Counted from the first letter of the stretch, positions 5,389 to 22,487 are shown. The stretch: 64,000 nucleotides of DNA from Acidobacteriota bacterium (GCA_021325515.1 JAJPHC010000001.1:68248-132247); one strand, 5' to 3'. Numbers and translations are program-made. Notes: a model not told the origin generated them from the letters alone.

Positions 5389-5909
5389 GAAGGACCGAGA
5401 TTCTCATCGCGGGCGCGGTCATCACCGCCGCCCTGGTCTGGATCCTGTCTGCCGGCCTGGGGAAGGACCCGCAGCACATCGATTCGCCGCTGATCGGGAA
5501 ACCTGCGCCTGACTTCGCGCTGAAGCAGGTCGGCACGGGTGACACCGTCGGCCTCGCGCAGTTCCGCGGCAAGCCGGTGGTCGTCAATTTCTGGGCGACG
5601 TGGTGCCGTCCCTGCTACGAAGAGCATCCGGTTCTCGTGGCCAACGCCGAGATGATGAAGAATCAGGTCCAGTTCGTCGGCGTGGTGTTTCAGGACAAGG
5701 AAGAGAAGATCCAGCAGTTCCTCAACGAGCGCGGCTCCGCCTATCCGACACTCGTGGACGTCGGCGGCAAGACCGCGATCGCCTACGGCGTCGGCGGTGT
5801 GCCCGAGACGTTCTTCCTGAATCGCGACGGGAAAGTCGTGGCGAAGTTCGAGGGTCCGATCGATCCCGAGGCGCTGCAGCAGAATGTTAGAAAGGCGATG
5901 GCCCAATGA
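5385..5909 (+). CDS. ccmG: thiol:disulfide oxidoreductase CcmG/DsbE
   Basis: N-terminal TM anchor and thioredoxin fold with WATWCRPC active site. Confidence 0.9.
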   Translation: MRRTEILIAGAVITAALVWILSAGLGKDPQHIDSPLIGKPAPDFALKQVGTGDTVGLAQFRGKPVVVNFWATWCRPCYEEHPVLVANAEMMKNQVQFVGVVFQDKEEKIQQFLNERGSAYPTLVDVGGKTAIAYGVGGVPETFFLNRDGKVVAKFEGPIDPEALQQNVRKAMAQ

Positions 5910-6427
5910 AGATCGCGCGGTTCATCGCAGCATTCCTCTTCGCCACTTCGCTTCTCGCGCAGGAAGTGAAGGTCCCGGATGCCGAGCAGTTCGTCGGCAG
6001 GCCGGAAGGACAGCCGGTCAGCGGCGCGATGCTCGATCAGAAAACGAACGAGACCGCCGGCATGCTGCGCTGTCCTGTGTGCCAGGGCATGTCGGTCGCC
6101 GACTCTCCCTCCGAGATGGCGGTCAACATGAAGCACCAGGTGCGCGAGCTCATCGCGCGCGGCTACACGCAGGATCAGATCCTCCGCTACTTCGAGCGGT
6201 CGTACGGCCAGTTCGTGCTGTTGAAACCGAAGTTCCAGGGCGTGAACACGCTCGTCTGGATTCTTCCGATCCTCGCGCTGATCGTCGGCATCATCGCGAT
6301 CTTCTCCATGATGGGAAAGCGTGCGGGTGGTCAACCTGTTGACGATGCTCCGCCGGCAGAAGGCGCAGAAGGCAGCGACGATCCCTACCTCGCCGAAGTA
6401 AGAAAGCTGACTGGAAAACAATCATGA
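5906..6427 (+). CDS. ccmH: cytochrome c biogenesis protein CcmH
   Basis: Signal peptide, LRCPVCQGMSVADS (CxxC) motif and a C-terminal TM. Confidence 0.88.
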   Translation: MKIARFIAAFLFATSLLAQEVKVPDAEQFVGRPEGQPVSGAMLDQKTNETAGMLRCPVCQGMSVADSPSEMAVNMKHQVRELIARGYTQDQILRYFERSYGQFVLLKPKFQGVNTLVWILPILALIVGIIAIFSMMGKRAGGQPVDDAPPAEGAEGSDDPYLAEVRKLTGKQS

Positions 6428-7743
6428 CCGGTTCGACTGACTGGCTGAGTGCAACCGCGATGCTCCTCTCCGGGATCATCGTCGGGTTGATGTTCATGTA
6501 CGCCTCGATGCGGCGGAAGCAGCAGGCCGCGGCTCAGGGCGGGTCCGATGAGCTCGAGGTCCGCGATCTCATCGCGCGCCGCGATGCGCTGATCCAGCAG
6601 TTGCGCGATCTCGAAGACGTGCCCGCCAACGGCACCGAGCGCACGCGCCTCGAGCGCGAAGCCGCGCAGGTGCTGCGTGCGCTCGACGGCAAGAAGCCCG
6701 GCGCCGCGAGGCCGGGAGTATCCGCCGTTGCCATCCAGGCGCCCGCCGCAGCTCCGGCCGGGATGAATCCGGCGGTCAAGGGATTCGTATGGGGCGTTGC
6801 CTCCGTCGCCGCTCTCGGATTCCTCGGCTACTTCGTCTGGTCCTCATCGACGGACAAGAATGCCCAGCCGATGCAGGGAGGGATGCAGCCGCAACCGCAG
6901 GCGCAGATGCAGGGACAGGCGCAGGCACCGCAGGCGGATCCGGCCGTGCAGCAGCTCGAAGCCGCAGTCGCGAGCTCACCCGAGGACGTGAACGCCCGCA
7001 TCAATCTCGCGAAGGCCTATCTGGAAAAAGAAAACATGATGGGCGTCTTCGAACAGACGCAGGCCGTGCTCGCGAAATCGCCCGGCGATCCGCGCGCGCT
7101 GACCTATCAGGCGCTCGTGCGCATGGCGATGGGACAGACCGACATCGCAGGCAAGATGCTCGAGCAGGCGACGAAGACGGATCCTAAGTTCATCGATGCC
7201 TGGGTCGGCATGGCCTGGCTCAGTTTCCAGACCGGAAAGCCGGAAGCCGGCGAGAAGGCGATGAGCGAGGCGATGAAACAGCATCCGGAGGAAAAGGCTC
7301 GTCTCACCGAGATCCTCACGGAGATGAAGAATCAGAAGCCGGCCGCATTGCCGAAGAACCATCCGCAAGTCGGCGAGCCGCCGCCGGCCGCCGCCGCCTC
7401 CTCCGCACCAGCGACCGGCGACGCGATTCATCTGACCTTGAATCTCGACGCTGCCGCCGCCGCCCGCGTGCCGCAGCATCCCATCGTCTACATCATCGCG
7501 CGTCCCGCCGGCGTAACCTCCGGCGCGCCGATCGCCGTCAAGCGATTGCTCGCGGACGGATTCCCGATGCAGGTCGACTTCAGCTCCGCCGATTCGATGA
7601 TGGGGCAGCCGCTGCCGGCGAAGCTGCATCTCGAGGTGCGCGTCGACATCGACGGCGATGCCGCGACGAAGAGCCCTCAGGATCCCTCGGCCACGCTGGA
7701 CGGTGTGGCAACCGGGTCGAAGCTGACGCTGAACCTGAAGTAA
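6424..7743 (+). CDS. ccmI: CcmI/CycH-like TPR apocytochrome chaperone
   Basis: N-terminal TM segments and TPR repeats. The C-terminal block (PIVYIIARPAGVTSGAPIAVKRL..FPMQVDFSSADSMM) resembles the C-terminal part of E. coli CcmH / CcmI. Last gene of the ccm run. Confidence 0.72.
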   Translation: MTGSTDWLSATAMLLSGIIVGLMFMYASMRRKQQAAAQGGSDELEVRDLIARRDALIQQLRDLEDVPANGTERTRLEREAAQVLRALDGKKPGAARPGVSAVAIQAPAAAPAGMNPAVKGFVWGVASVAALGFLGYFVWSSSTDKNAQPMQGGMQPQPQAQMQGQAQAPQADPAVQQLEAAVASSPEDVNARINLAKAYLEKENMMGVFEQTQAVLAKSPGDPRALTYQALVRMAMGQTDIAGKMLEQATKTDPKFIDAWVGMAWLSFQTGKPEAGEKAMSEAMKQHPEEKARLTEILTEMKNQKPAALPKNHPQVGEPPPAAAASSAPATGDAIHLTLNLDAAAAARVPQHPIVYIIARPAGVTSGAPIAVKRLLADGFPMQVDFSSADSMMGQPLPAKLHLEVRVDIDGDAATKSPQDPSATLDGVATGSKLTLNLK

Positions 7744-7798
7744 ACGACTCGACGGGACCCGCGTTCACGCGCGGCGCTATACTCCATGGCTCACCGCC

Positions 7799-9016
7799 AT
7801 GACTGATCCCGCCGTTCTTTCCGCTCTGGAAGGTGCCGTCGCTGCTGCTCCCGACAACGACACGCTGCGGTTTCATCTCTTCGATCTGCTGCTCGGTGCG
7901 GGCAATCCGCAGCGCGCGCTCGAGCTCTGCACGGAGCTCCTCGCGAAGCGTCCCGATCATGTGATCGCGCTCGAGAAGGCCGCGTACGCGTGCGACATGA
8001 CCGGCGACCGCCAGCGCGCGGAGAGCTACCGCCATCTCGCGAATGCTCTCGCGCCGCGTCCCGCACCGGACACCAGCGAGGAGGCGAAGGTCGTGCCTCT
8101 TCGTGTGATTTCCGGCGGTGGAGAAGAGGAACGCGGCCGCTTCGAAGTCGAAGCGGCGGACACGCGTCTCGCGGACGTCGCCGGCATGGATGAAGTGAAG
8201 CGGCGACTCGATCTCGCGTTTCTCGCGCCGATGCGCAATCCGGAGATTCGCAGGATGTACGGCAAGTCTCTTCGCGGCGGCATGATGCTGTACGGCCCGC
8301 CGGGATGCGGCAAGACTTTCATTGCGCGTGCGACGGCGGGTGAGCTCGGCGCGCGATTCATGGCCATCGGCATTTCCGATGTTCTCGACATGTGGCTGGG
8401 CCAGAGCGAGCGCAATCTGCACGAGATCTTCGAGACCGCGCGGCGCAGCGCGCCGTGTGTCCTGTTCTTCGATGAGATCGATGCGCTCGGCCGCAAACGA
8501 AATCTGGTGCGGCAGTCGTCGGAGCGGAACGTCGTCAATCAACTGCTCGCCGAGCTCGACAGCGTCGGTGCGAACAATGAAGGGGTGTTCGTCCTCGCGG
8601 CGACGAATCATCCGTGGGATGTCGATGCGGCGCTGCGGCGGCCGGGACGCTTCGATCGTGTGTTGCTCGTTCTGCCTCCCGACAAGCCGGCGCGCGAAGC
8701 GATCGTCCGCCTTCATCTGCGCGAGCGTCCGGTGGGAGACATCGATGCCGCCTGGATCGCGTCGAAAACCGAGGACTTTTCGGGAGCCGATCTCGCACAT
8801 CTGTGTGAGTCTGCGGCGGAGCTCGCGATGGAGGAGAGTCTGAGCACGGGCAAGGCGCGCCCGATTCAGCAGGCCGATTTCAAGCGTGCACTGACTCAGG
8901 TGAAGTCGAGCACGCGCGCATGGTTCGACACGGCGCGCAACTACGCGCAGTTCGCGAACGAAGGCGGTGTGTACGATGATCTCCTGGCGTTCATGCGTAC
9001 GCGGCGGCTGCTGTGA
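7799..9016 (+). CDS. classic-clade AAA+ ATPase with an N-terminal ~85-aa TPR-like helical module (AAA1)
   Basis: Walker A GPPGCGKT, Walker B VLFFDEID, second region of homology ATNHPWDVDAALRRPGRFD. The N-terminus reads LRFHLFDLLLGAGNPQRALELCTELLAKRPDH (TPR-like). Confidence 0.85.
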   Translation: MTDPAVLSALEGAVAAAPDNDTLRFHLFDLLLGAGNPQRALELCTELLAKRPDHVIALEKAAYACDMTGDRQRAESYRHLANALAPRPAPDTSEEAKVVPLRVISGGGEEERGRFEVEAADTRLADVAGMDEVKRRLDLAFLAPMRNPEIRRMYGKSLRGGMMLYGPPGCGKTFIARATAGELGARFMAIGISDVLDMWLGQSERNLHEIFETARRSAPCVLFFDEIDALGRKRNLVRQSSERNVVNQLLAELDSVGANNEGVFVLAATNHPWDVDAALRRPGRFDRVLLVLPPDKPAREAIVRLHLRERPVGDIDAAWIASKTEDFSGADLAHLCESAAELAMEESLSTGKARPIQQADFKRALTQVKSSTRAWFDTARNYAQFANEGGVYDDLLAFMRTRRLL

Positions 9017-10101
9017 CGACGGAGGTCCAGCGCAGTGGCGACGGCGCGGGATCGATTCTCAGGCGCGCCGAGGCTCTTCTCGAAGTCGATCGTCCTCGCG
9101 ATGCGCTGGCGCTGCTGCTCGACGCTCTGCGGCTGGAACCTGAGAACCATCGCGTGCTGGCGCGTATCGCAGGCGCGCATCTCGCGCTCGACGATCACCG
9201 CACCGCGTTGAAGTTCGCGAACGAGGCGGTGCGCGTCGCACCCGAGCTCGAGTGGGGTCATCGTATCCGCAGCATCGTGCTGCTGCATCTCGGCGAGAAG
9301 CGCGGCGCCTATCGCGCCGCAGAACGCGCCGCGCAACTCGATCCCGAAAACCTCCTCGTGCTCAATCAGCTCTTCTCGGTCATGCGCGCCTCCGGCATGC
9401 GCACCGAAGCGTGGAATGTCGCGCATCAAATGGTGCACATCGGCCCGGAAGTCCCCGCGTCGCACATCAATCTCGGCCTCGTGCATCTCGAATACAAACA
9501 ATTCGCGGAGGCGGAACGCGCGTTTCGCCGTGCGCTGCAGCTCGAGCCCGAATCGTGGCCCGCGCTCAACAACCTCGGCGTTGCGCTGCAGGGACAGGGG
9601 CGTCATCAGGACGCGGTCGAGTTCTTCTATCGCGCCGCGCAGAGCAATCCATCGCGGACTCTGCCTCGCAACAACCTCATGCTCGCCGGGAAAAAGTATC
9701 TCTCCGGACCATCGACGGTGCTCGCCGTGGTGTTCGTGGTCATCGTGGCCAATGTTCTCGCGGCGTTGAAAGTCGATGATGGAACTTCGGCTGCCGCGAT
9801 CTGGGGAGCGATCATCCTTGCTGTATGCGGCGTCGTTCTCGATCGCCGGCGCCGCCTCCAGAACCTCGGCCAGCCGGTGCAGCGCATCTTTTCCGATCAG
9901 CAGCGCTCGGAACGGCGCAAGAGCGCTCACCGCATTCTCTCGATCGTGGTCGTCATCTACACCGCGCTCTTCGGGCTCGCCGGACTCGTTGCGCCGTTCA
10001 TGGGCGGATGGGAGGGCGTAGGCGTTTTCGCCATCATCGAGGGCGTCGAAGCCGGCCTGATTCTCTGGTGGTGGCGCACTCGGCCGCCGCGTGGGCTATG
10101 A
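9013..10101 (+). CDS. TPR-repeat protein with a C-terminal 4-TM anchor
   Basis: The GTG start overlaps the AAA1 TGA. About six TPR units, then hydrophobic segments (VLAVVFVVIVANVLAAL, AIILAVCGVVL, ILSIVVVIYTALFGLAGLV, VFAIIEGVEAGLILWWW). Confidence 0.7.
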   Translation: MTTEVQRSGDGAGSILRRAEALLEVDRPRDALALLLDALRLEPENHRVLARIAGAHLALDDHRTALKFANEAVRVAPELEWGHRIRSIVLLHLGEKRGAYRAAERAAQLDPENLLVLNQLFSVMRASGMRTEAWNVAHQMVHIGPEVPASHINLGLVHLEYKQFAEAERAFRRALQLEPESWPALNNLGVALQGQGRHQDAVEFFYRAAQSNPSRTLPRNNLMLAGKKYLSGPSTVLAVVFVVIVANVLAALKVDDGTSAAAIWGAIILAVCGVVLDRRRRLQNLGQPVQRIFSDQQRSERRKSAHRILSIVVVIYTALFGLAGLVAPFMGGWEGVGVFAIIEGVEAGLILWWWRTRPPRGL

Positions 10102-10108
10102 TCGGCCT

Positions 10109-10774
10109 ATGACCGAAAAGAAGAACTGGGGCTCCACCGTGATGGGGTGGTTCATCGTTCAGGACGATGCCCAGAAGCCGAACGGCGGTGACGATTACAT
10201 CCCGTTCTCGGACGCCGCTCCGGCGCCGGATGCGCCGAAGAAGAACGCGGCTGCACCGCCGGCGCCGATGCCTGAGGTGTTCAAGCAGCCGCCCCCGGCT
10301 GCGACAGGCGGGAACGTCGACTTCGACGCGGTCTTCGAGGCTGCCGGTGTCGATGCCGAAGAGCGCGGGCGCGTGACGAAAGCCGCCGACCTGCTGAAGA
10401 GCCTTCCTCCCGGCACCGACCCCGCGGTGCGAAAGCAGATCGTGGAAGCCTCGCTGCGCGCATTCGGCGTGCCGATCGATCAGATCATCGAAGCCGGCGT
10501 GCAGGAGATCCAGGCGCTCGAGGGTTACATCCGCAACGGCGCCTCGGAGACGGAGAAGCTGATCAACGAGTCGGACAAGCGGATCGCGCAACTGCAACAA
10601 CAGATCGCCGATGTTCGTACCGTGATGCAGCAGACGGTTGAGGAACAGAAGCAGGTCATGCAGCTCTGCAATGCGAAGAAGCTCGATGTGCAGGCGGTGC
10701 TGGAGTTCTTCGGGCAGGACGCCGTGGCCAGGGTCGTCAAGGAATCACCGAAGCTGCATGAACCTACGGCCTAG
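10109..10774 (+). CDS. hypothetical protein: short N-terminal hydrophobic/amphipathic segment, Pro/Ala-rich linker, C-terminal coiled coil
   Basis: ORF 10091..10774 with the likelier ATG at 10109 (MTEKKNWGSTVMGWFIV). Coiled coil EKLINESDKRIAQLQQQIADVRTVMQQTVEEQKQVMQL. Codon usage is consistent with its neighbours. Confidence 0.6.
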   Translation: MTEKKNWGSTVMGWFIVQDDAQKPNGGDDYIPFSDAAPAPDAPKKNAAAPPAPMPEVFKQPPPAATGGNVDFDAVFEAAGVDAEERGRVTKAADLLKSLPPGTDPAVRKQIVEASLRAFGVPIDQIIEAGVQEIQALEGYIRNGASETEKLINESDKRIAQLQQQIADVRTVMQQTVEEQKQVMQLCNAKKLDVQAVLEFFGQDAVARVVKESPKLHEPTA

Positions 10775-10795
10775 CGCCGGTCAAAAGGAGAAACC

Positions 10796-11491
10796 ATGTC
10801 CGCATTTGGACGTCTCGCAAATCTCTGGAAGGGTTTTCTGTCTCTCTGGATCTCGGACATCGAGAAGGATCATCCGGAGATTGCGTACGAGAACGCGATC
10901 AACTCCATGACCGCGAAGTACGCGAAGCTGAAGTCGGCGACCGCCGCGATCATCCGCCGCCGCGAAGAGCTCGACGAGCGCTATAAGCGCGCGACCACCG
11001 ATCTGAAGCAGACCGAGGCGGAGCTGAATACGGCGGTGGAAACGAATCAGGATGATCTCGCGGTCATTCTCATCCAGAAGAAGAATCAGCTCACGGCCGA
11101 GATCACCGATCTGAAGTCGGAGATGGATCAGGCGCACAACGACGCCGACTCCGCGAAGACTTCCCTGCTCGCCGTGCAGTCGGAGATCAAGAAGCTGAAG
11201 GCCGAGCGCGAGACGATGCTGGCGAAGATGCAGAGCGCGCAGGCGCGCATCAAGATCCAGGAGCAGCTCGACGGGCTGTCGGTCGACGACGAAGTGCGCG
11301 CGCTGGATACGGTCCGCAATCACATCAAGAACACGATCGCCGAAGCGAACCTCGGCAAAGAGCTCTCCGAGTCGTCGCTCGATTCGCGTCTCGCGGCGCT
11401 CAAGAATCAGACGGGCGATGTGACTGCGCGTGCCGAGCTCGAAGCGATGAAGGCGCGGAAGGCAGCGGCCGCACAGCAGAAGACGATGTAG
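10796..11491 (+). CDS. pspA: PspA/IM30 (Vipp1) family protein
   Basis: 231 aa. N-terminal amphipathic [34 protein letters not shown] aligns by eye with E. coli PspA [36 protein letters not shown]. Long heptad coiled coil and a C-terminal ELEAMKARK. Confidence 0.85.
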
Positions 11492-11499
11492 TCGCTGTT

Positions 11500-11734
11500 C
11501 ACCCTGAGCGAAGTCTTTCACGCTGAGCGGAGCGAAGCGTCAACCAAGGCGCCGCCGTTTCGCGTTCTTCAGGCGCTGCGAGTGAAGTTCACATCTCGCG
11601 GCGCCTTGGTTGATCCTTCGCTTCGCTCAGGATGTTTGACCGCGCGGCGCCTTGGTTGATCCTTCGCTTCGCTCAGGATGTTTGACCGCGCGGCGCCTTG
11701 GCTGATCCTTCGCTTCGCTCAGGATGTTTGGCCG
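11500..11734. repeat. REP/MITE-like family, locus B: one full hairpin unit plus two extra tandem arm copies (46-bp period)
   Basis: Partial arm 11500-11515, full hairpin 11519-11634, then arm copies ending at 11680 and 11726 (GCGGCGCCTTGGTTGATCCTTCGCTTCGCTCAGGATGTTTGAC x3). Lies between convergent pspA and 11744..12547. Confidence 0.9.
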
Positions 11735-11743
11735 CGTGAACCC

Positions 11744-12547
11744 TCACGATGTCGTGACCATCAGCGATTCCGTGTCGATCGCGGTCTCGCGCACCGCCTC
11801 GACTCCCGTGATCAGCTCATCGAGCTGGCCTGAGAGCTCCTGCGGCGACTGCATCGTCACGATCTGATCGGCGATGAGCTGGAACGTGTTCTCGATCAGA
11901 TCGAGCTCACCGCGCGCGACGGTCACGAACTTTTTGATCTCGCGCAGTTTCTCGATCCGCTTCACGATGACGGCGAGATTCTTCTTCGCGATGTCCGTCT
12001 GCGGATCGCCGGCCGCTCCCTGCTGCGCGCGCTGCGTGTACATCTCGCGATCGTGCTCGAGCCGTTTGAGGTCGAGCTTATCGAGGTACTCCTCGTAGCG
12101 ATTGCACGTCACCGCCATGTCGATGAACGCATCGACGAGTGCATTCGTCTTCTCCAGCTCCCCGCGCAGCAGCTCGCCCGTGAAGGTCGGATTCGTTTCC
12201 GCCAGCTTCGAGATCTCGTAGTTCTTCGCGATCAGCTTCTGCACGCGGCTCGTCTCTTCACGATCGAGCGAATTGATCTTCGCGACGCGCTGGCGATAGT
12301 GCTCCGCCTGTTGCATCGATTCGAACTTCGGATCCCACACCGTCTTCCGGAGAAAACGCGAGTCCGGCGCGTGCAGCAGCCAGAGAACCTCGGCACCGAG
12401 GGCCACGGCGGCGACGATCGGATTGCTCAGCACTGCGGCTGCCGCCAGCCCGCCGCCGAGCAGCGTGAGGTTGTACGGATTCGCCAGTGCGAACCGGAAG
12501 TACGGCGGCTTTTCGGGAAGCTTGTCGGACGGTGGCGTCACCGGCAT
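11744..12547 (-). CDS. hypothetical membrane protein (two N-terminal TM segments plus long coiled coil)
   Basis: 267 aa. TM region YNLTLLGGGLAAAAVLSNPIVAAVALGAEVLWLL followed by helical heptad-rich sequence. Convergent with pspA. I recognise no family. Confidence 0.6.
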   Translation of the reverse strand: MPVTPPSDKLPEKPPYFRFALANPYNLTLLGGGLAAAAVLSNPIVAAVALGAEVLWLLHAPDSRFLRKTVWDPKFESMQQAEHYRQRVAKINSLDREETSRVQKLIAKNYEISKLAETNPTFTGELLRGELEKTNALVDAFIDMAVTCNRYEEYLDKLDLKRLEHDREMYTQRAQQGAAGDPQTDIAKKNLAVIVKRIEKLREIKKFVTVARGELDLIENTFQLIADQIVTMQSPQELSGQLDELITGVEAVRETAIDTESLMVTTS

Positions 12548-12569
12548 GAGCGGATCATTCTACGATGCT

Positions 12570-12588
12570 TGGTGATAAGCTATCACCA
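12570..12588. promoter_or_regulatory. candidate operator: perfect palindrome TGGTGATA-AGC-TATCACCA
   Basis: 8-bp arms with a 3-nt spacer, AT-richer than its surroundings, in the 100-bp divergent intergenic region between 11744..12547(-) and 12648..14471(+). Confidence 0.3.
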
Positions 12589-12647
12589 GCTTCCAATGTC
12601 AAAATAAGCTTCTCATTCGAACGTCGTTCACGCGGCCAGAGAGCTGT

Positions 12648-14471
12648 GTGTCAGGAGCGTTTACCTTCATGAGACTCACTCCCTTCGCAAAACTGTTCAT
12701 CACTGTCGTCGTTCTCGGCGTCGTAGGCCTCTTCGTCTACAAGCATCGCGCGACGCTGATCCCCGCAGCGGTGCTCAAGGGCTCGGTCGTTCCCAGTAAG
12801 GTCGATCTCGGCCAGGCGCAGGATGCCTCCGCGAGCAGCTCGGACTACAAGGTTCCGAGTACCGAGGCAGGTTGCTCGGATCAACCCGAAATCCGGATGA
12901 ACGTCTGGGCGTGGAACGCTCAGATGGGACTCATGGCTGCAACAGGCGGCAAGGTTGCGACCAGGGGCAGCCTGATGTGCGACAACGGCGTCAATCTGCA
13001 TCTCATTCGTGAAGACGACGGCAACAAGATGCAGGAGAACCTCGTCGCGTTTGCAACGGCGCTCAAGAACGGCGACGCGAATCCGTCGAAAGGCGTGCAC
13101 TTCGTGGCCGTGATGGGCGACGGCAGTCCTTCGTTCCTGAAGGGTCTCAACGATGTGCTGGTGAAGAAACTCGGCAGCGAATATCGCGCTCGCATCATCG
13201 CATCGGCCGGCTACTCGCGAGGCGAGGACAAGTTCATGGGGCCTGCCGAGTGGAAGTCGAATCCTGCGACGTCGCGCGGCGGCGTCGTGGCCGGCGTGCT
13301 CCGCGACGGCGACTGGAACATCGCGCAGAAGTGGCTCGGCGACAACGGTCTGCCGAACAATCCCGACGAGAAGACGTGGGATCCGGATGCTCTCAACTGG
13401 GTCGCGGCTGATACGTATGTCGATGCCGCGAAGAAGTACGTCGAAGGCTGGAGCGAAGAGCGGCCGGTCGTGAAGAACGGCAAGCTCACCGGCGAGAAAA
13501 AGAAGATCACCGTGCAGGGCGTCGTCACCTGGACTCCGGGCGACGTCACCGTCGCTCACGAGAAGGGCGGCATCATCTCCATCGTCTCGACTCGCGAATA
13601 CAACACACAGATGCCGAACGTCATCATCGGCATCGACAAGTGGATGCGCGACAACCGCGCGACGGTCGATCACTTCATCACTGCGCTGGTGAAAGGCGGC
13701 GACGCCGTCAAAGGAAACAAGCAGGCGCTCGAGCATGCCGCCGCCGTCAGCGCGAGCGTGTACGGCGAAGAGAATGCCGATTACTGGCTCAAGTACTTCC
13801 GTCCGGTGCTCGAGCGCGACAAAGCCGGCACCGAAGTTTCGCTCGGCGGCTCGTACGTGAACAATCTCGCCGACAACCTCCTGCTGTTCGGGATGGTGCC
13901 CGGCTCGTCGAACCTCTTCAACGCGACCTACACCAAGTTCGGCGACGTCGCCGTGCAGCAGTATCCGGAGTTGATTCCTTCGTATCCGAAGCCCGACGAC
14001 ATCGTCGACACCTCGTATCTGAAGGACCTCTCCGGGAACACGCAGACCGCGGCGGTCGAGGCTGCGAAGCCGAAGTACGACGAAGCGTCTGCGAAGACCG
14101 AGGCGCCGAAGAATGTCGTCGGACGCCGCTCGTGGAACATCACTTTCGAGACCGGCAAGGCGACGTTCACGCCGGCCGCGGAGTCAGTGCTCGAGCAACT
14201 GCAGCGCGAGCTGCTCGTCGCCGGCGGCACGACGATTCAGATTCATGGGCACACGGACAACGTCGGTTCCGCCGACGCGAACCAGCGTCTCTCCGAAGAG
14301 CGCGCGTTCGCAGTCAAGCAATGGCTGATGGACAAGTCGAGCGTGAACTTCCCGTCGGAGCGCATGACGGTGTTCGCGCATGGTGCGACGAATCCGATTG
14401 CGCCGAACTCCACCGCGGACGGAAAGGCGAAGAATCGCCGCGTGGAAATCGTGCTGGTGAGCGGCTCGTAA
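12648..14471 (+). CDS. membrane-anchored periplasmic solute-binding (NMT1/NitT-TauT-like) domain fused to a C-terminal OmpA-like peptidoglycan-binding domain
   Basis: GTG 12648 or ATG 12669 (MRLTPFAKLFITVVVLGVVGLFVY, TM anchor). C-terminus ATFTPAAESVLEQLQREL..IQIHGHTDNVGSADANQRLSEERAFAVKQWL..NRRVEIVL is a typical OmpA_C. Confidence 0.75.
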   Translation: MSGAFTFMRLTPFAKLFITVVVLGVVGLFVYKHRATLIPAAVLKGSVVPSKVDLGQAQDASASSSDYKVPSTEAGCSDQPEIRMNVWAWNAQMGLMAATGGKVATRGSLMCDNGVNLHLIREDDGNKMQENLVAFATALKNGDANPSKGVHFVAVMGDGSPSFLKGLNDVLVKKLGSEYRARIIASAGYSRGEDKFMGPAEWKSNPATSRGGVVAGVLRDGDWNIAQKWLGDNGLPNNPDEKTWDPDALNWVAADTYVDAAKKYVEGWSEERPVVKNGKLTGEKKKITVQGVVTWTPGDVTVAHEKGGIISIVSTREYNTQMPNVIIGIDKWMRDNRATVDHFITALVKGGDAVKGNKQALEHAAAVSASVYGEENADYWLKYFRPVLERDKAGTEVSLGGSYVNNLADNLLLFGMVPGSSNLFNATYTKFGDVAVQQYPELIPSYPKPDDIVDTSYLKDLSGNTQTAAVEAAKPKYDEASAKTEAPKNVVGRRSWNITFETGKATFTPAAESVLEQLQRELLVAGGTTIQIHGHTDNVGSADANQRLSEERAFAVKQWLMDKSSVNFPSERMTVFAHGATNPIAPNSTADGKAKNRRVEIVLVSGS

Positions 14472-14513
14472 AAGGAACGGCGCGGGGCGCTCAGCGCCCC
14501 CGCCGATCACGTC

Positions 14514-15299
14514 ATGGCTCAAGCACTCGACGTCATCGTTCCCAATCGTCCGGTCTCGCCGGCGGTCATCAAGATCCTCATCTTCGGCCAGGCACTCGTT
14601 GCGATCATCGCCTGGTGGACGATGCCGATCTCGGTGCTGCCGCGCCCCGACGAAGTCTTCTCCGCACTCGGTACGCTCTGGATGCGCGGTCTCGGCCGCG
14701 AGCTCATCACGAGTCTCGTGTTGAACGTGCAGGCGATCGCCTGGACGGTCCTGATCTCGCTCGCGTTGTCGTATCTCACCGTGCTGCCGTTCTTCCGCCC
14801 GATCGCGGCCGCTGTGACCAAGGGCCGTTTCCTCGGGCTCATCGGGCTGACGCTGATCTTCACGATCATGCTCGGCGGCGGCCACACGCTGAAGCTCGCG
14901 CTGCTCGTCTTCGGCATGACGGTCTTCTTCGTCACGTCGATGGCCGCAGTCATCCTCAATCTTCCGAAAGAGCGCTTCGATCACGCGCGCTCGCTGGGGA
15001 TGAGCGAATGGCGCGTCGTCTGGGAAGTCGTCATTCTCGGTACGGCCGATGAGGCGTTCGAAGTGCTGCGTCAGAACGCCGCGATCGGCTGGATGATGCT
15101 CACGATGGTGGAAGGCATCTCCCGCGCGGAAGGCGGCATCGGCGCGATGCTGCTGAATCAGAACAAACACTTCCACATCGCGGAAGTCTTCGCGATCCAG
15201 ATCGTGATTCTCGCGGTCGGCATCGCGCAGGACTATGCGATCGGCGCGCTGCGCAATCTCTTCTGCCCCTACGCCGCGCTGACACTGGAGCGCAAATGA
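14514..15299 (+). CDS. ABC transporter permease (nitrate/sulfonate/taurine-type BPD family)
   Basis: 261-aa, 6-TM protein with an EAA-loop-like segment ERFDHARSLGMSEWRVVWEVVILGT. Confidence 0.8.
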   Translation: MAQALDVIVPNRPVSPAVIKILIFGQALVAIIAWWTMPISVLPRPDEVFSALGTLWMRGLGRELITSLVLNVQAIAWTVLISLALSYLTVLPFFRPIAAAVTKGRFLGLIGLTLIFTIMLGGGHTLKLALLVFGMTVFFVTSMAAVILNLPKERFDHARSLGMSEWRVVWEVVILGTADEAFEVLRQNAAIGWMMLTMVEGISRAEGGIGAMLLNQNKHFHIAEVFAIQIVILAVGIAQDYAIGALRNLFCPYAALTLERK

Positions 15300-16126
15300 C
15301 CGCAGTCTCCGCGTATGAGGTCAAGGAAACCATTCTCGACGTGAAGAACGTCTCGCATCGCTACGGCGATCGCGTGATTCTTCGCGATCTCGATTTCACG
15401 GTGAAGAACATTACGCGCCCCAATGCGCTGACCGGACAGGTGATCGCGCTGCTCGGGCCGTCGGGCATGGGGAAGACGACGCTCTTTCGCGTCCTCGCCG
15501 GCCTCATGCAGCCCACCTCGGGTGAGGTGAAGATCGGACCCGAAGGGAAGCCGGTCGAAGCGGGGATGGTCGGCGTCGTTTTTCAAAACTATCAGTTGTT
15601 CGAGCACCGGACGGTCCTCGGCAATCTGACGATCGCGGCGGCGCAGAGCTGCAAGTCGTCGTCCGAGGCGTGTGACCGTTCGATGGAAATGCTGAAGAGA
15701 TTCGGCCTCGACGACTTCGCGAAGCGCTATCCGAGCCAGCTCTCGGGCGGCCAGCGGCAGCGCGTCGCGATTGCGCAGCAGTTTCTTTGCAGCCGCCATT
15801 TCCTCCTGATGGACGAGCCGTTTTCCGGACTCGATCCGATCGCGGTGGAGAAGGTGTGCAGCCTCGTCACCGAGGTCGCGAATCTCCACGATCTGAATAC
15901 GATCATCATCGTTACGCACAACATCGAAGCGGGGCTGCAGGTCGCCGACACGGCGATTCTGCTCGGCCGCGATCGCAAGGACGATGGAACGCCGGTTCCC
16001 GGCGCGCGCGTTCAGGCCACGTACGATCTGATCGAGCGCGGCCTGATGTGGCATCCTCAGGTGGACCAGATGCCCGAATTCGTCGAGCTCGCGCGCGAAG
16101 TGCGGGCAAAATTCAAGGAATTGTGA
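15296..16126 (+). CDS. ABC transporter ATP-binding protein
   Basis: Walker A GPSGMGKTT, signature LSGGQRQRVAIA, Walker B LLMDEPFSGLD. The ATG overlaps the permease stop. Confidence 0.9.
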   Translation: MTAVSAYEVKETILDVKNVSHRYGDRVILRDLDFTVKNITRPNALTGQVIALLGPSGMGKTTLFRVLAGLMQPTSGEVKIGPEGKPVEAGMVGVVFQNYQLFEHRTVLGNLTIAAAQSCKSSSEACDRSMEMLKRFGLDDFAKRYPSQLSGGQRQRVAIAQQFLCSRHFLLMDEPFSGLDPIAVEKVCSLVTEVANLHDLNTIIIVTHNIEAGLQVADTAILLGRDRKDDGTPVPGARVQATYDLIERGLMWHPQVDQMPEFVELAREVRAKFKEL

Positions 16127-17970
16127 GCAAGATACAGCCGCCTGCCGCTCTTCCCGCGTGGGCCGACGATCTTCGCAAGCGCTATCTGCGCGGCGAGTCG
16201 TCGATGTTCGTGCTGCACGGCAACGTCTTCGATGTCGTGCTCTATCAGCAGAAGCCGCTGACGATGAGCGAGTTTCTGACGCAGGTGCTGCTGAGGGAAT
16301 CGCGCGACACGATCGCCGTCTACAACGTCGCGACCGGGCTGCGGCTGACGAAGCGGACCGGCAGCGGCGCGCCGGGACTCGACAACGCGATTCTCGAGTC
16401 GGAGTCGAGCAAGATTCTCAGCGCGTGCGAGACGGCGCTCATCGGCTCGATGCGCTGCGCGGTGATCATCGAATACGCCGAGGCGATCGCGCCGGGCGGC
16501 GATCCGAGCTTTCAGAGCTCGAGCGATCGCTCCGCAATCGTCACGCTGCATCGCTGGTCGCTGCTGCCGGAGATCGAGAAGGGCGACAACATCATCATTC
16601 TCGTCACCGAGAACCTCACCGATCTCGCGCCGAAGATCATCTCCAATCCGAAGATCGCGGTCATCGAAGTGCCGATGCCGGATCGGAGCGAGCGGCGGAA
16701 CGCGGCGACGCTCGCCGACAATCGGCTCGCCGCGGCGGAAGCGGATCGCTACGCAGAACTGACGGCCGGATTGAAGTCGGTGCAGATCATCTCGATCCTC
16801 ACGCCGCCGCCCGCGCAGGACAGCGATGCGGCAGACCGCGAGCGGTTCATTCTCTCGCTCCTCGGCGATGCGGCGGATTCGAAGGAGCGCGCCTCGAAGC
16901 TCGCGTCGCTGACCAGCGGCATGGGCTACGAAGAGATCCGCAAGCTCGTCGCGCCGAATGCGGCGGCGCCGGCGGCAGAGGATGGCGCGGCGCGAAAGGA
17001 AATCGACAAGCTGATCGCGCGGCGCAAGCGCGAGATTCTCGAGCGCGAATGCTTCAGCCTCGTCGAGTTCGTCCAGCCGGAGCACGGCTTCGAAGTCGTC
17101 GGCGGCATGGAGGAAGTGAAGAAGGATCTGCTGGTGCTCGCCGAAAATCTGCGCGAGCAAAGGACCGCACGCGTCCCCATGGGCATCCTCTTCACCGGCC
17201 CGATGGGCACAGGCAAGACGTTCGTTGCGGAAGCTTTCGCGCGCGAATGCGGCGTGACCGCGATCAAGCTGAAGAACTTCCGCTCCAAGTGGGTCGGCGC
17301 GACCGAAGGCAATCTCGAGAAAATCCTGAACGTCGTGAAAGCGATCGGCCAGGTCGTGGTGATCATCGATGAAGGCGATCGCGCCTTCGGCAGCGGAGAA
17401 GGGGAGAGCGACGGCGGAACGTCGTCGCGCGTCATCGCGCGCGTCAAGGAGTTCATGTCCGACACGTCGAACCGCGGACGCATTCTCTTCATCGTGATGA
17501 CGAATCGCCCCGACAAGCTCGATGTCGATCTGAAGCGCGCCGGCCGCCTCGATCGCAAGATCCCGTTCCTCTACTCGCAGACGCCCGAGGAAGTCGAGGG
17601 TGTGGCGAAGGCGCTGGTGAAGAAGAACCGCATCAACACCGCCGTCGACTTCCCGTCGATCCGCCACGGCTTCTCGAGCAAGCTCGTCGGCTACAGCAAT
17701 GCGGATGTCGAAGCAGTCGTGCTGATGGCGAACGATGATGCGGCGCGGCAGGGCGGCGGCGATTCACCGGTGAAAGAGGAGCACTTCCTCGGCGCTGCAC
17801 GCGACTACTTCCCGAGCCGCGATGTCGAGCTGCTCGAGTACATGGAGCTGCTCGCGGTCTTCGAGGCCTCGAGCAGGAGGCTGCTGCCGCCGAAGTACGC
17901 GGCGATGACGGTGGAAGAGCTGGACACGAGAATGCGGCAACTGCGCGCACTTGTGGGAACCCGGCGGTAA
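16123..17970 (+). CDS. AAA+ ATPase with a ~330-aa N-terminal domain of unrecognised family (AAA2)
   Basis: ORF 15787..17970 trimmed to GTG 16123 ([37 protein letters not shown]), which overlaps the ABC ATPase TGA (TTGTGAGC). Walker A GPMGTGKT, Walker [12 protein letters not shown]-like [19 protein letters not shown]. Confidence 0.8.
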
Positions 17971-17989
17971 GACGCGCAAAACGCCAGGT

Positions 17990-18107
17990 CAATTCTCAAT
18001 TCTTCATTTTGCGCTCTGCGTTCTGCATTTCGCTCGCGTCTTCTTCAACGAGAGTCAAAAGCGAAATTCAGAATTCAGACTTCAGAATTCAGAATGAAGA
18101 ATGAAGG
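17990..18107. repeat. AT-rich imperfect hairpin whose arms are six tandem heptamers each
   Basis: Left arm: caattct caattct tcatttt gcgctct gcgttct gcatttc (17990-18031). Right arm: gaaattc agaattc agacttc agaattc agaatga agaatga (18063-18104). The arms are roughly reverse-complementary (4-6 of 7 per heptamer). Starts 20 nt after the AAA2 stop. Confidence 0.7.
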
Positions 18108-18175
18108 CGGGAACGTTGTTGGCGGACGGTGCATCCATTCTGAAGAAATTGGGGCATCGCCAGTGGTACGATTCC

Positions 18176-18268
18176 CCCTGCAGCAGGACGCCTGGGGGTG
18201 GCCTAACGGCCTGAGATCAAACCCTTCGAACCTGACCCGGCTCATACCGGCGTAGGGAACGGCAGATC
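18176..18268 (+). promoter_or_regulatory. TPP (THI-box) riboswitch
   Basis: GGGGGUGGCCUAACGGCCUGAGAUCAAACCCUUCGAACCUGACCCGGCUCAUACCGGCGUAGGGAAC matches the conserved CUGAGA ... ACCCUU.GAACCUGA.C.GG.U.AUACC.GCG.AGGGAA core. Lies ~55 nt upstream of the TonB-dependent receptor ATG. Outer boundaries are approximate. Confidence 0.85.
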
Positions 18269-18323
18269 AGATCGAAACCTTCTCACCAGCGCCCTCTGGA
18301 AAAACTTCGTTGAAGAGGTTTCC

Positions 18324-20585
18324 ATGAAGGCATTCACCGCAGTTCTCACATTCCTTTTCACCGCGGCTCTGCACGCGGCGACGGTTCGCGGCGTGATCAA
18401 GGATGCGGCCGGAGCCCCGGTTGCCGGAGCGCTCGTCTCCTGCGGCTCGATGCACGCATCGAGTGACGCGAAGGGGATGTTCATCCTCGAACAGGCGGAT
18501 TGCGCGAATCTCGAGATCGCGCATCCCGGCTTTCAAAGCGCGAGTGTTGCGGCGGCCGCAGACGTCGCCGTGACGATGCGGCCCGCGCTCGCGGAATCGA
18601 TCGTCGTCTCCGGCATTCGCGCGGACGCCACGGTTCCCGTCACCAGGACCGACATGCCGCGCGAAGAAATCGAGCAGCGTTACTACCAGCAGGACATTCC
18701 GCTCCTGCTGCGCGACACGCCATCCGTCGACTCCTACACGGAAGCCGGCGTCGGCGGATCGGGCTACTCGTACTTCACGCTGCGCGGCATCAGTCCCACG
18801 CGCCTCAACTTCACGCTCGACGGCGTGCCGCTGGCGGACTCCGAAGACATGGGGACGTACTTCGCCGACTTTCCGGATCTCGCGCGCTCGCTGCAGTCGA
18901 TTCAGGTGCAGCGCGGAGTTGGGACGTCGACGGTGGGCAACGCCTCGTTCGGCGGCTCGATCAACATGCAGTCGATCGATCTGTCGCAGAGCGAGAAGAT
19001 GGATGCGCGCATCGCCGGCGGGTCGTACGGCTCGCATTTCGCCACGATCGGCTGGCAGAGCGGATTCCACGACGGGTTCGCCGCCTATCTGCGCGCATCG
19101 GCGAACGAATCGGACGGATATCGCGATCACAGCGGCGCGAATCAGCGCAACCTCTTCTTCAGCGTTGCGAAGCAGAATGAGGATTCCCAGCTCCGCCTCA
19201 CCGGATTCTCAGGCCACGAGCGCCAGCACATGTCCTTCTACGCGGCGGACCTCGCGACGCTGGAGACGAACATCCGCGCGAATCCGCTGTCGCCCGAGGA
19301 TCGGGACAGCTTCGGCTACGACCTGGCGCAGCTTCAGTATCTGAAGTCGCTCTCGCCGTCGATGGACATGACGGCGTCGGTCTACTACCAGCGCGGCTAT
19401 GGCTGGTACCGCCTCTTCGATGACGAGACGGCGAAGAGCGGCATGCGCCAGTACGGCATCGACGGCGCGCTGATCGGCACGCTGGCGTCCTTCAGTTGGA
19501 CGAGCGGACCGTTGACGGCGAAGTACGGTCTCAACGTCAACGAGTTCAAGCGGACGCACACGCGCGATCTCGTCGGCGTGCAGCGCGACTACTCCAACTA
19601 CGGCACGAAGGGCGAGGCGAACGTCTTCGCGAAGCTCTCGTACGACCGCGGCCGCTGGCACACCTACGGCGACGCACAGGTGCGCTACACGAATTTTCAC
19701 TATCACGGCGATGTCGCGATCGCGCCGATTCACTGGACGTTCTTCAATCCGAAGCTCGGCGCGCGCTATGACCTCGCGCCGGGGTCCAGCATCTACGCAT
19801 CCGCCGGCATCTCGACGCGCGAACCGACGCGCAACGATCTCTTCCAGGGGGAGGACAACGCGACCGTCGCGCACGATCTGCACGCCGTGCGCCCCGAGCG
19901 GCTGCTCGACCTCGAAGCAGGCTGGGACTATCACGATGCGCGTCTCGATCTGAAGGCGAACGTCTACGCGATGGAGTTCCGCCATGAGATCGCGTCGACC
20001 GGCGAGCTCTCCGACATCGGCCTGCTGCTGCGCAGGAATGTCGATCGCAGCGATCGGCGCGGCATCGAGCTCGATGCAGCATGGCAGCCGGTGCGCAGCG
20101 TTCATCTCCGCACGACCGCGAACCTCAGCACGAATCGCATCCACACCTGGACGCAGTTCTACGACGTCTACGATGAGGCGGGAGCGTATCTCGAGAGCAA
20201 GCCGCTCGTCTTTCACGACGTGCAGCCGGTGCTGACGCCGCGCGCGATCCTCAGCCAGTCGATCGATGTGACGCCAACATCGCGCACCTCGCTCGGACTC
20301 ACCGGCCGTTACGTCGCGAAGTCGTATCTAGACAACAGCGACAACGCGGACTTCATCGCGCCGTCGTTTTTCGTGGTCGACGCAAACGCCGGCCTCGATG
20401 TGACGTCGCAGATTCGCGTTTCGCTGCAGGTGAACAATCTCGCGAACCGCCATCGCATTTTCTCCAGCGGCTACGACTATCTCTTCATCAATCGAACCGG
20501 AACGAGCGAGACGATCAGCGGCACTCCGTACTACTACCCGCAGGCGTCGCGCAACGCGGTCGTCATGATCGATTTCAAGATGTAG
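18324..20585 (+). CDS. TonB-dependent outer-membrane receptor (N-terminal carboxypeptidase-regulatory-like domain, plug, barrel)
   Basis: Signal peptide MKAFTAVLTFLFTAALHA, plug motifs (FTLRGISPTRLNFTLDGVPL), and a 753-aa beta-rich sequence ending VVMIDFKM. Confidence 0.85.
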   Translation: MKAFTAVLTFLFTAALHAATVRGVIKDAAGAPVAGALVSCGSMHASSDAKGMFILEQADCANLEIAHPGFQSASVAAAADVAVTMRPALAESIVVSGIRADATVPVTRTDMPREEIEQRYYQQDIPLLLRDTPSVDSYTEAGVGGSGYSYFTLRGISPTRLNFTLDGVPLADSEDMGTYFADFPDLARSLQSIQVQRGVGTSTVGNASFGGSINMQSIDLSQSEKMDARIAGGSYGSHFATIGWQSGFHDGFAAYLRASANESDGYRDHSGANQRNLFFSVAKQNEDSQLRLTGFSGHERQHMSFYAADLATLETNIRANPLSPEDRDSFGYDLAQLQYLKSLSPSMDMTASVYYQRGYGWYRLFDDETAKSGMRQYGIDGALIGTLASFSWTSGPLTAKYGLNVNEFKRTHTRDLVGVQRDYSNYGTKGEANVFAKLSYDRGRWHTYGDAQVRYTNFHYHGDVAIAPIHWTFFNPKLGARYDLAPGSSIYASAGISTREPTRNDLFQGEDNATVAHDLHAVRPERLLDLEAGWDYHDARLDLKANVYAMEFRHEIASTGELSDIGLLLRRNVDRSDRRGIELDAAWQPVRSVHLRTTANLSTNRIHTWTQFYDVYDEAGAYLESKPLVFHDVQPVLTPRAILSQSIDVTPTSRTSLGLTGRYVAKSYLDNSDNADFIAPSFFVVDANAGLDVTSQIRVSLQVNNLANRHRIFSSGYDYLFINRTGTSETISGTPYYYPQASRNAVVMIDFKM

Positions 20586-20591
20586 CCGCCG

Positions 20592-21155
20592 ATGTCCGGT
20601 CTCGAAGTCTTTGCAGCATTCATCACCGTCGTCAGCATCGTGCTGACGGCGGTGGAGAACATCTGGTGCTGGCCGACGGGCGTGGTGAGCGTCGTGCTGT
20701 ATGCGTGGATCTTCTGGCAGGCGCGCTTCTATGCGAATGCCTGGCTGCAGATCGTCGTCTTTCTGCCGCTGATCCTCTACGGCTGGTACGCCTGGCTGCG
20801 CGGCGGTGAGGCTCATGGCGAGCTGCGCGTCGCGCGCACGCCGTTGTGGGGATGGATCGCCACGATCGTTCTCGGTGCCGCGGCGACGGCCGCGACCGCA
20901 TGGTGGATGAAGGTCCACACCGACGCGGTGATGCCGCTGGCCGACGCCGGCACGACCGCGTTCTCGATCGTGGCCGAGGCGATGACGGCGCGGAAGTGGA
21001 TCGAGAACTGGCTGATCTGGGTCGTCGTGGATGCCGTCTCGACGTGGATGTTCGTCACGCAGAGGCTCTATCCGAGCGCGGTGCTGTACGGGATCTTCGT
21101 GCCGCTGGCGGTGTATGGATGGATCGAATGGAAGCGATCACTCGCGTCTGCCTGA
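20592..21155 (+). CDS. PnuC-family transporter (PnuT-like, given the TPP riboswitch context)
   Basis: 187 aa, ~7 TM. Has PnuC-like features (VENIWCWPTGVVSVVLYAWIFWQARFYANAWLQIVVFLPLILYGWYAW). Starts 6 nt after the receptor stop. Confidence 0.75.
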   Translation: MSGLEVFAAFITVVSIVLTAVENIWCWPTGVVSVVLYAWIFWQARFYANAWLQIVVFLPLILYGWYAWLRGGEAHGELRVARTPLWGWIATIVLGAAATAATAWWMKVHTDAVMPLADAGTTAFSIVAEAMTARKWIENWLIWVVVDAVSTWMFVTQRLYPSAVLYGIFVPLAVYGWIEWKRSLASA

Positions 21156-21908: not shown

Positions 21909-22470
21909 CGCTCCAATCATCCGCAGCATGCCGTTGTTTTCTGCGTCGACGAGAAGACAGCCATTCAGGCCCTGGACCGACTCGATCCCGTACTGCCGTT
22001 CTCACCGGGGCGACTTGAACGCCACGGATTCGAGTACTTCCGACATGGAACACTTTCTCTCTACGCAGCGCTCAATACAAAATCGGGAGAGGTCATCGGC
22101 AAGACGGCAGCACGTCACACCAGCGAAGAGTTCGTCGCCTTTCTTTTATCCGTCGTGTCGTCGAAGCCGAAAGGTAAAGAAATCCACATCATTCTGGACA
22201 GTCTCTCGGCTCACAAAACCGACGCGTGAAGCAGTTCATGGTCGACTCCGAACGTAACTCTGCATTACACGCCCACGTACTCGTCGTGGCTTAATCAAGT
22301 GGAGATCTGGTTCAGCAAAATCGAGCGCGACGTGATCAGTCGGGGTGTCTTCACATCGATACCGGATCTACGCGGCAAACTGATGACCTACATCACCCGC
22401 TACAACGATCAACCACGGACGATTCGCTGGAGCTACGTCGACGTCTCCAAACGGATCACCGGTCCCAAAC
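21909..22470 (+). pseudogene. IS630-family transposase remnant (5'-truncated, disrupted)
   Basis: Frame-0 translation reads ..NHPQHAVVFCVDEKTAIQALDRLDPVLPFSPGRLERHGFEYFRHGTLSLYAALNTKSGEVIGKTAARHTSEEFVAFLLSVVSSKPKGKEIHIILDSLSAHKTDA*. TGA falls at 22227-22229. A locally shifted stretch (VKQFMVD in another frame) follows, then ..PNVTLHYTPTYSSWLNQVEIWFSKIERDVISRGVFTSIPDLRGKLMTYITRYNDQPRTIRWSY. There is no N-terminal HTH region. Ends are approximate. Confidence 0.8.
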
Positions 22471-22487
22471 AAATCTTTTACACGCCA

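Follow-up and report, generated by a model that had tools for sequence, protein, structure and literature searches.

We analysed a 64,000-nucleotide stretch of DNA from an Acidobacteriota bacterium (GCA_021325515.1 JAJPHC010000001.1:68248-132247; hereafter the window), in which a pspA gene lies within a run of nine genes at 7799-17970. The functional unit consists of seven of these, at 10109-17970, which encode a coiled-coil protein (CC), PspA, a protein with two transmembrane (TM) helices and a helical domain (TMcc), a periplasmic binding protein (PBP) fused to an OmpA domain (PBP-OmpA), the permease and ATPase of an ATP-binding cassette (ABC) importer, and a two-part AAA+ ATPase (AAA2). The two genes upstream, for a second ATPase (AAA1) and for a TPR protein with four TM helices (TPR-TM), belong to a separate, widespread dyad that abuts the PspA module only in this lineage. 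Our preferred reading, to which we assign a probability of about 0.6, is that the seven genes form one envelope module in which AAA2 recycles assemblies of PspA, TMcc and CC beside the importer. The architecture has already been described computationally. A survey without experiments by Ravi, Anantharaman, Aravind, Gennaro and colleagues covers two architectures, in a paragraph of its text as well as in Text S2.2 and Table S3 (Ravi et al., mSystems 2024, PMC11237479), with OGG56892.1 from Candidatus (Ca.) Handelsmanbacteria as an example of the PspA architecture, and the window holds one copy of each, side by side. New here are the boundaries of the module, the position of TMcc as its hub, the core role of CC, a swap of the transporter cassette, a conserved PspA tail and the cultured organisms in which the system can be studied.

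Conservation of the seven-gene unit

Relatives of the locus were collected around AAA2 (80 loci from a species-level genome collection) and around AAA1 (80 loci, 50-88% identity). Distant TMcc subgroups used as seeds added four Myxococcota loci, three of them with at least 7 kb of flank, and 50 Armatimonadota/Abditibacteriota loci, a set that also holds a few metagenome-assembled genomes (MAGs) of Actinomycetota. Co-occurrence was counted with family hidden Markov models (HMMs) in loci flanked by at least 7 kb on both sides, giving n = 35 for AAA2-seeded Acidobacteriota and n = 26 for TMcc-seeded loci of Armatimonadota type. The AAA2-seeded relatives are all acidobacterial and come from four classes (Pyrinomonadaceae/Blastocatellia, Vicinamibacteria, Thermoanaerobaculia and Holophagales), across which AAA2 is 67-93% identical; the genome closest to the window is an uncultured acidobacterial MAG of the Thermoanaerobaculia (88-95% protein identity; L001, L081). 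TMcc was present in every well-flanked acidobacterial locus (35/35), accompanied by PspA and by CC in 34/35 each, by PBP-OmpA in 33/35 and by the permease in 31/35. Seven of the nine genes are clustered far more than chance would give, and AAA1 and TPR-TM are not.

The acidobacterial consensus is a co-directional series, CC > PspA > PBP-OmpA > permease > ABC ATPase > TMcc > AAA2, from which the window departs in that TMcc is inverted and placed between pspA and the transporter genes. The nearest relatives of the locus (L215-L218; TMcc 76-78% identical) share this exact layout, inverted TMcc included, and the same boundaries, but carry a methyltransferase or ABC-F gene upstream of CC in place of AAA1 and TPR-TM. 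Because these relatives keep the layout without the two upstream genes, we delimit the unit at 10109-17970. Wherever it occurs, AAA2 lies directly downstream of either TMcc (63 acidobacterial loci) or PspA (7/9 Armatimonadota and two acidobacterial loci). A third order, PspA > AAA2 > PBP-OmpA > permease > ABC ATPase, occurs in two Acidobacteriota MAGs (L044 and L056; continued in L044 by TMcc > CC), whose transporter cassette is intermediate, with 33-45% identity to that of the window. This arrangement shows repeated reshuffling of one gene set inside one phylum.

The TMcc family comprises 746 cluster representatives, as recovered by an exhaustive profile search. Across the 50 Armatimonadota/Abditibacteriota loci the order is PBP-OmpA > permease > ABC ATPase > TMcc > CC, often followed by PspA > AAA2, and the well-flanked loci contain CC in 25/26, PBP-OmpA in 22/26, the permease in 21/26, PspA in 9/26 and AAA2 in 7/26. 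In the divergent Armatimonadota loci PspA is only just within reach of detection (E 1e-4 to 1e-9), so that 9/26 may be an undercount. All seven genes are found in the cultured Abditibacterium utsteinense LMG 29911 (L192), six in the cultured Abditibacteriota IAD-21, where PspA was confirmed by Pfam (L172), and five in a MAG assigned to Fimbriimonas ginsengisoli Gsoil 348 (L183). Myxococcota possess a PspA > TMcc dyad in 4/4 loci found, with a PspA that is 63% identical to that of the window (E about 1e-85). Retention of gene content despite shuffled order is a classical signature of functional linkage. Overall, TMcc is the common denominator, or hub, of the system and CC its near-universal partner, and the two are its most tightly conserved members.

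Median identities of the individual proteins divide the locus in two. The core proteins are closer to Acidobacteriota than to Armatimonadota copies (CC, 57% versus 27%; PspA, 77% versus 26%; TMcc, 54% versus 25%; AAA2, 71% versus 31%), and the transporter proteins show the opposite preference (PBP-OmpA, 33% versus 54%; permease, 26% versus 61%; ABC ATPase, 39% versus 52%). These values indicate that the locus is chimeric, an Armatimonadota-type paralogous cassette (12669-16126) having replaced the usual one in situ within an acidobacterial-type core. In the usual acidobacterial cassette, represented by the L005 orthologues, the binding protein matches NMT1, Phosphonate-bd and OmpA, and the permease matches BPD_transp_1 at E 3.3e-20. 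The periplasmic domain encoded in the window had no direct match to any PBP Pfam model, and is homologous to NMT1-type PBPs by hhalign (probability 99.4%, E 1.3e-21, 333 columns). PBP-OmpA is thus predicted to be a divergent NMT1/NitT-TauT solute-binding domain fused to an OmpA-like peptidoglycan-binding domain. All components of a NitT/TauT-type importer are present, namely an NMT1/SsuA-like binding protein, BPD_transp_1 and ABC_tran, with a weak match for the permease of the window.

That the cassette was swapped for a paralogue with transporter function retained argues that the importer is integral to the system. The opposite view, that PspA genes and transporter genes are mere neighbours without functional coupling, could draw on the binding protein, whose NitT/TauT-like family has no known tie to membrane repair. 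However, the association outlasts both gene-order shuffling between phyla and replacement of the cassette. Such persistence would be difficult to account for if linkage were not under selection, and we regard mere proximity without coupling as extremely improbable.

Three tandem copies of a 46-bp unit occupy 11597-11736, between the convergent genes pspA and TMcc, exactly at the breakpoint where gene order in this lineage leaves the consensus. The unit looks like a dispersed intergenic repeat resembling repetitive extragenic palindromic (REP) elements. It is also found at 1087-1207, 53018-53368 and 55653, and its core, GATCCTTCGCTTCGCTCAGGATG, has 11 occurrences in the window versus 0 expected. 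An 8-3-8 palindrome in the divergent gap between TMcc and PBP-OmpA was dropped as a candidate, not being conserved in relatives.

The AAA1 dyad and surrounding features

The original prediction joined all nine genes at 7799-17970 into one machine and cast AAA1, whose TPR module stands where Vps4 has its MIT domain, as a Vps4-like remodeller of PspA. The local arrangement is favourable to such a scheme, as AAA1, TPR-TM, CC and PspA are co-directional and AAA1 consists of a helical N-terminal domain (N-domain) followed by one classic AAA cassette. Furthermore, CC homologues begin with MTEKK, which places the CC start probably at ATG 10109, 7 nt past the TPR-TM stop codon, and the four genes are probably co-transcribed in this genome. 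Conservation speaks against it. HMMs for PspA, CC, TMcc and the AAA2 N-domain found no match within 10 kb, the distance over which absence was scored, in any of the 79 other AAA1 loci, and neither AAA1 nor TPR-TM was present upstream in any AAA2-seeded locus. Genomes with both modules hold them far apart, by 3.1 Mb on contig CAWGEI010000003.1 (L048/L084) and by 0.4 Mb on a Fimbriimonas contig (L120/L188), and the closest relatives have the unrelated upstream genes described above. In 23/23 members of its family the AAA1 N-domain matched TPR_19, never MIT, and the AAA1 cassette best matches Cdc48/p97 D2 and FtsH, not CdvC.

These conservation data largely refute the nine-gene scheme, which we consider very improbable. 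Its grouping survives for the seven genes at 10109-17970, and the co-occurrence across phyla that it proposed to check holds for the PBP-OmpA, ABC and AAA2 genes together with PspA, but not for the series from AAA1 through TPR-TM and CC to PspA. Similarly, the proposed link of PspA to an AAA+ ATPase and an ABC/OmpA module exists through AAA2 (PspA in 34/35 loci) and not through AAA1 (0/79). The ATPase that tracks this ESCRT-III-superfamily gene is AAA2, and AAA1 was wrongly identified as the Vps4-like partner of PspA.

AAA1 loci occur in Acidobacteriota, Armatimonadota, Actinomycetota (including Streptomyces), Chloroflexota, Dormibacterota, Gemmatimonadota, a gammaproteobacterium and Melainabacteria. 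A TPR-TM gene was detectable by tblastn in roughly 50/80 of them, mostly immediately downstream of AAA1. The CcmH/CycH TPR model was matched weakly by 19/23 TPR domains of the AAA1 family and by the TPR-TM protein. The genes ccmF, ccmG, ccmH and ccmI, for cytochrome c maturation, lie directly upstream of AAA1 in the window (3388-7743), and the series ccmI-AAA1-TPR-TM was found in one fragmentary sister MAG, on a contig that ends there (L081); because it is seen only in this sister MAG, the adjacency of ccmI and AAA1 is probably incidental.

All nine open reading frames (ORFs) lie where they had been predicted, and the ORF map and Pfam upheld their domain calls (Table 1). The GTG start of the TPR-TM gene overlaps the AAA1 TGA, the start of the ABC ATPase overlaps the permease stop codon, and the stop of the ABC ATPase overlaps the GTG start of AAA2. 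Homologues of PBP-OmpA begin at ATG 12669, not at the listed GTG 12648.

Table 1. Genes at 7799-17970 of the window
Feature	Position	Strand	Evidence and remarks
AAA1, TPR N-domain and single classic AAA cassette	7799-9016	+	TPR_19 at 7-54, AAA at 162-290 (E 1.5e-41), AAA_lid_3 (Pfam)
TPR-TM, TPR and 4TM protein, AAA1 partner	9013-10101	+	about five TPR repeats, then four hydrophobic helices (Pfam)
CC, coiled-coil protein	10109-10774	+	no Pfam family; listed ORF 10091-10774
PspA/IM30, ESCRT-III superfamily	10796-11491	+	PF04012 full length, E 2.8e-22
TMcc, 2TM and helical domain	11744-12547	-	no family match
PBP-OmpA fusion, signal-anchored	12669-14471	+	OmpA at residues 499-597, E 1.2e-20; ORF as listed from GTG 12648
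ABC importer permease	14514-15299	+	TauC/SaoP, E about 1e-5; BPD_transp_1, E 0.013 (weak)
ABC importer ATPase	15296-16126	+	ABC_tran, E 1e-29
AAA2, two-part ATPase	16123-17970	+	AAA at residues 355-482

The downstream boundary of the PspA module is marked by a thiamine pyrophosphate (TPP) riboswitch at 18184-18276 (+), where the next transcription unit starts. It scored 62.5 bits, above the Rfam gathering score, and lies directly 5′ of a TonB-dependent receptor gene (18324-20585) that is followed by a multi-TM ORF (20592-21155); the region is probably a thiamine-related uptake unit. This riboswitch of the next gene was the sole Rfam match above the gathering score, and no riboswitch that could reveal the ligand of the transporter was found in 7000-18500. 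Further downstream, G+C content falls to 0.536 at 22001-24000, compared with about 0.62-0.65 elsewhere in the window. The stretch, in which no Rfam family was matched, may be a foreign insert. An anti-phage defence system was considered and rejected, since similarity in PADLOC was generic, to AAA (IetA, TRIP13) and OmpA (ZorB) proteins.

Proteins of the module

Assignment of the 10796-11491 product as PspA/IM30, as originally predicted, was confirmed by a full-length match to PF04012 (79.9 bits, cutoff 33.9; residues 4-222 on positions 3-218 of the 220-position profile). Its score against TIGR02977 was 47 bits, so far below the cutoff of 243 that the protein is not the proteobacterial equivalog. 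The N-terminus is hydrophobic/amphipathic and, judging from family membership, the protein would form ESCRT-III-like membrane-binding polymers; PMC7619361 and PMC10936438 cite structures of PspA-family polymers from Liu et al. 2021 and from Junglas et al. 2021. The protein ends in ...QKTM (11480-11491), and a C-terminal tail of the form x-K-T/S-M/L-COOH is shared by 56/58 copies from Acidobacteriota and Myxococcota (L002-L080, L161-L164). Armatimonadota copies carry another conserved tail, with an ADQALADFAA...LDP motif. The x-K-T/S-M/L tail could serve in docking or recognition.

TMcc has TM helices at about residues 24-40 and 43-62, followed by an all-helical cytoplasmic domain of ~200 residues. 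Its motifs are PYxxxAFxNPYNL and, in the helical domain, the highly conserved LDLIENTFxLIxDQIVxMxSPxELxxQLDxL. Within the second TM helix, Glu53 (12389-12391 region) is kept in at least 90% of 51 diverse members, alongside Ala20 and Asn26 just before the first TM helix, and the buried charge in the hairpin suggests a sensing or partner-binding role. The Snf7 label published for TMcc was not reproduced by the methods applied, in which profile-profile comparison was made with PspA and CC: Pfam searches with 30 and 51 family members gave no match to Snf7, ESCRT-III or PspA, and profiles built from 30 close and 51 diverse sequences gave none among PDB sequences. An AlphaFold2 (AF2) model of TMcc (predicted local distance difference test score, pLDDT, 73) returned non-significant coiled-coil and BAR-type matches from the PDB with Foldseek (E > 0.1). 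Alignment of TMcc with PspA by hhalign had a probability of 1.6%, and no pairing among TMcc, CC and PspA exceeded 7%.

CC has 2257 relatives. In addition to an invariant N-terminal KKxWGSTVxGWF motif and a Pro/Ala-rich, disordered linker, the protein has four helices, three of them short and the other ~80 residues long, and its AF2 model (pLDDT 70.6) found no fold match in the PDB with Foldseek (E > 0.1).

The C-terminal part of AAA2 (residues 320-615) is an intact AAA cassette of the classic type, in which the residues of Walker A and Walker B, sensor-1 and the Arg fingers are invariant and the pore loop reads S-K-W-V-G. Residues 1-320 are conserved as strongly as this C-terminal half, with FVLHGNVxD at the Walker A position, VIxEYAE at that of Walker B and LLVxENLxxLxPKxxSNPK at the positions of sensor-1 and the second region of homology (SRH). 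A Pfam search with the N-domain gave no relevant match and no MIT; the domain is consistent with a degenerate D1, its AAA character being apparent at the level of motifs only. Clade placement relied on scores against CdvC, FtsH, CDC48 and PAN models together with top PDB matches. For the cassettes of both AAA1 and AAA2, the top PDB matches were p97/Cdc48/VAT D2 domains. The CdvC model gave 146.8 bits for AAA1 and 54.5 bits for AAA2 against a cutoff of 650, in both cases below the FtsH, CDC48 and PAN scores.

Proposed mechanism and known systems

In the mechanism that we propose, PspA, TMcc, CC and AAA2 make up the cytoplasmic side of the module. TMcc is the likely dedicated membrane receptor for PspA, and CC a putative coiled-coil adaptor with a conserved hydrophobic N-terminal motif. 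Together they would position PspA assemblies at the inner membrane beside the transporter. AAA2 would form Cdc48-like hexamers in which D1 has a structural role and D2 is active. Driven by ATP, these would pull out or unfold subunits via the KWVG pore loop and in this way recycle assemblies of PspA, TMcc and CC, making AAA2 a functional analogue of Vps4 and not its orthologue. At the periplasmic face, the binding protein of a NitT/TauT-type importer would have an inner-membrane anchor, with its OmpA domain tethering it to peptidoglycan. PBP-OmpA and the importer may report on or deliver a periplasmic solute, or else determine where the machinery acts with respect to the wall.

Several observations weigh against this proposal. 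Remodelling of PspA by AAA2 is a step that we infer. TMcc shows no detectable homology to ESCRT-III or PspA, and neither ATPase possesses an MIT domain or a specific affinity to Vps4. The AAA2 N-domain is colinear with PAN/Rpt2 in PDB profile comparison at a non-significant E of 0.25-1.2, and with the C-domain of AAA2 itself by hhalign at a non-significant E of 0.33. The parts are also separable, because partial sets exist: 17/26 Armatimonadota-type loci have no PspA and AAA2 adjoining the TMcc, CC and ABC genes, and the Myxococcota loci have neither transporter nor AAA2 near the PspA-TMcc dyad.

The partial sets bear on an alternative in which the core is the peptidoglycan-tethered importer together with TMcc and CC as its regulators or assembly factors. 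In that case PspA and AAA2 would be optional, and AAA2 would act on TMcc, CC or the transporter in Cdc48-like extraction or quality control. This would account for the Armatimonadota-type counts, in which CC, PBP-OmpA and permease far outnumber PspA and AAA2, for the translational coupling of acidobacterial AAA2 to TMcc rather than to PspA, and for the closeness of both AAA domains to D2 of the Cdc48/VAT segregases. It does not account for the Myxococcota dyad, where PspA and TMcc persist without any transporter, for the position of AAA2 directly after PspA in 7/9 Armatimonadota loci, or for AAA-PspA dyads without a transporter in Clostridium (Ravi et al., PMC11237479), and the low Armatimonadota PspA count on which it leans may be too low. 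We consider an importer-centred core unlikely, and favour the seven-gene module with AAA2 acting on PspA, TMcc and CC. A bolder version, in which AAA2 is a genuine bacterial counterpart of Vps4, is held tentatively and at somewhat less than even odds. In this version Cdc48-derived AAA2 hexamers, their D1 ring degenerate, would recognise the x-K-T/S-M tail of this PspA subfamily, or TMcc, and disassemble membrane-anchored PspA/TMcc/CC polymers with ATP. If true, bacteria would own a complete ATP-cycled ESCRT-III-like machine, with TMcc as its physical link to an importer tethered to peptidoglycan.

According to a 2025 review, an ATPase of Vps4 type "appears absent in bacteria" (PMC7619361), a second review likewise describes bacterial Vps4-like partners as absent (PMC10936438), and Popp et al. 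2022 does not cover the present context. The module is a concrete, conserved candidate for disassembly of PspA/Vipp1 polymers in bacteria. In at least three phyla a dedicated PspA subfamily is linked to a candidate membrane receptor and an ATPase of unfoldase type. That the importer stayed coupled when its cassette was replaced hints at an unexplored connection of solute uptake with membrane remodelling. The presence of the module in cultured organisms makes the AAA2-PspA hypothesis directly testable. Its value is tempered by prior publication of the architecture and by the error of the earlier mechanism with AAA1 as partner.

The survey of PspA neighbourhoods with AAA+ and PBP-OmpA/ABC genes that the original prediction mentioned is that of Ravi et al. 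The prediction also took the system to be experimentally uncharacterised, in agreement with our literature search, which found no experimental study of these architectures. The published PspA operon shares with the window PspA, a signal-anchored PBP-OmpA, a permease, an ABC ATPase, a TM-anchored helical protein and a two-part AAA ATPase. The window differs in the inverted TMcc between pspA and the transporter, and in a cassette that is a divergent paralogue escaping the PBP Pfam models; CC, near-universal here, was not itemised in the survey. Where the survey assigned "TM + Snf7", we find a TM hairpin and a helical domain, and where it described "inactive-AAA + classical-AAA", AAA2 has an intact C-domain and an N-domain with degenerate motifs at sub-significant scores. 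The published two-gene architecture of an AAA protein with a TPR/multi-TM protein corresponds by architecture to the AAA1 dyad, down to its broad, patchy phyletic spread, but the N-domain of AAA1 is TPR and not MIT, and for its AAA domain Cdc48 and FtsH outscore CdvC.

Relative to ESCRT-III with Vps4 (CdvB/CdvC; Snf7/Vps4), the module likewise has a polymer gene in operon linkage with an AAA+ ATPase of the classic clade whose pore loop reads K-W-x-G, and presumably the same logic of ATP-driven subunit extraction. In contrast to those systems, it contains no MIT domain, no identified MIM motif and no affinity to the Vps4 clade; AAA2 has an extra degenerate N-terminal domain, and TMcc, CC and the transporter are without ESCRT counterparts. 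Classical Psp and Lia systems (PspF-ABC of E. coli; LiaIH of B. subtilis) also pair a PspA effector with a dedicated small membrane protein as its possible recruiter, and the role of TMcc may be analogous to that of PspBC or LiaI. As originally noted, the canonical partners are absent from the run, which has no PspB, PspC, PspF or LiaI domains, and a sigma-54 -24/-12 motif (TGGYA-N6-7-TGC) was absent from the 320 bp upstream of CC in 49/49 loci. Whereas PspF is an NtrC-type transcription activator, the ATPase of the window is of the classic-clade unfoldase type.

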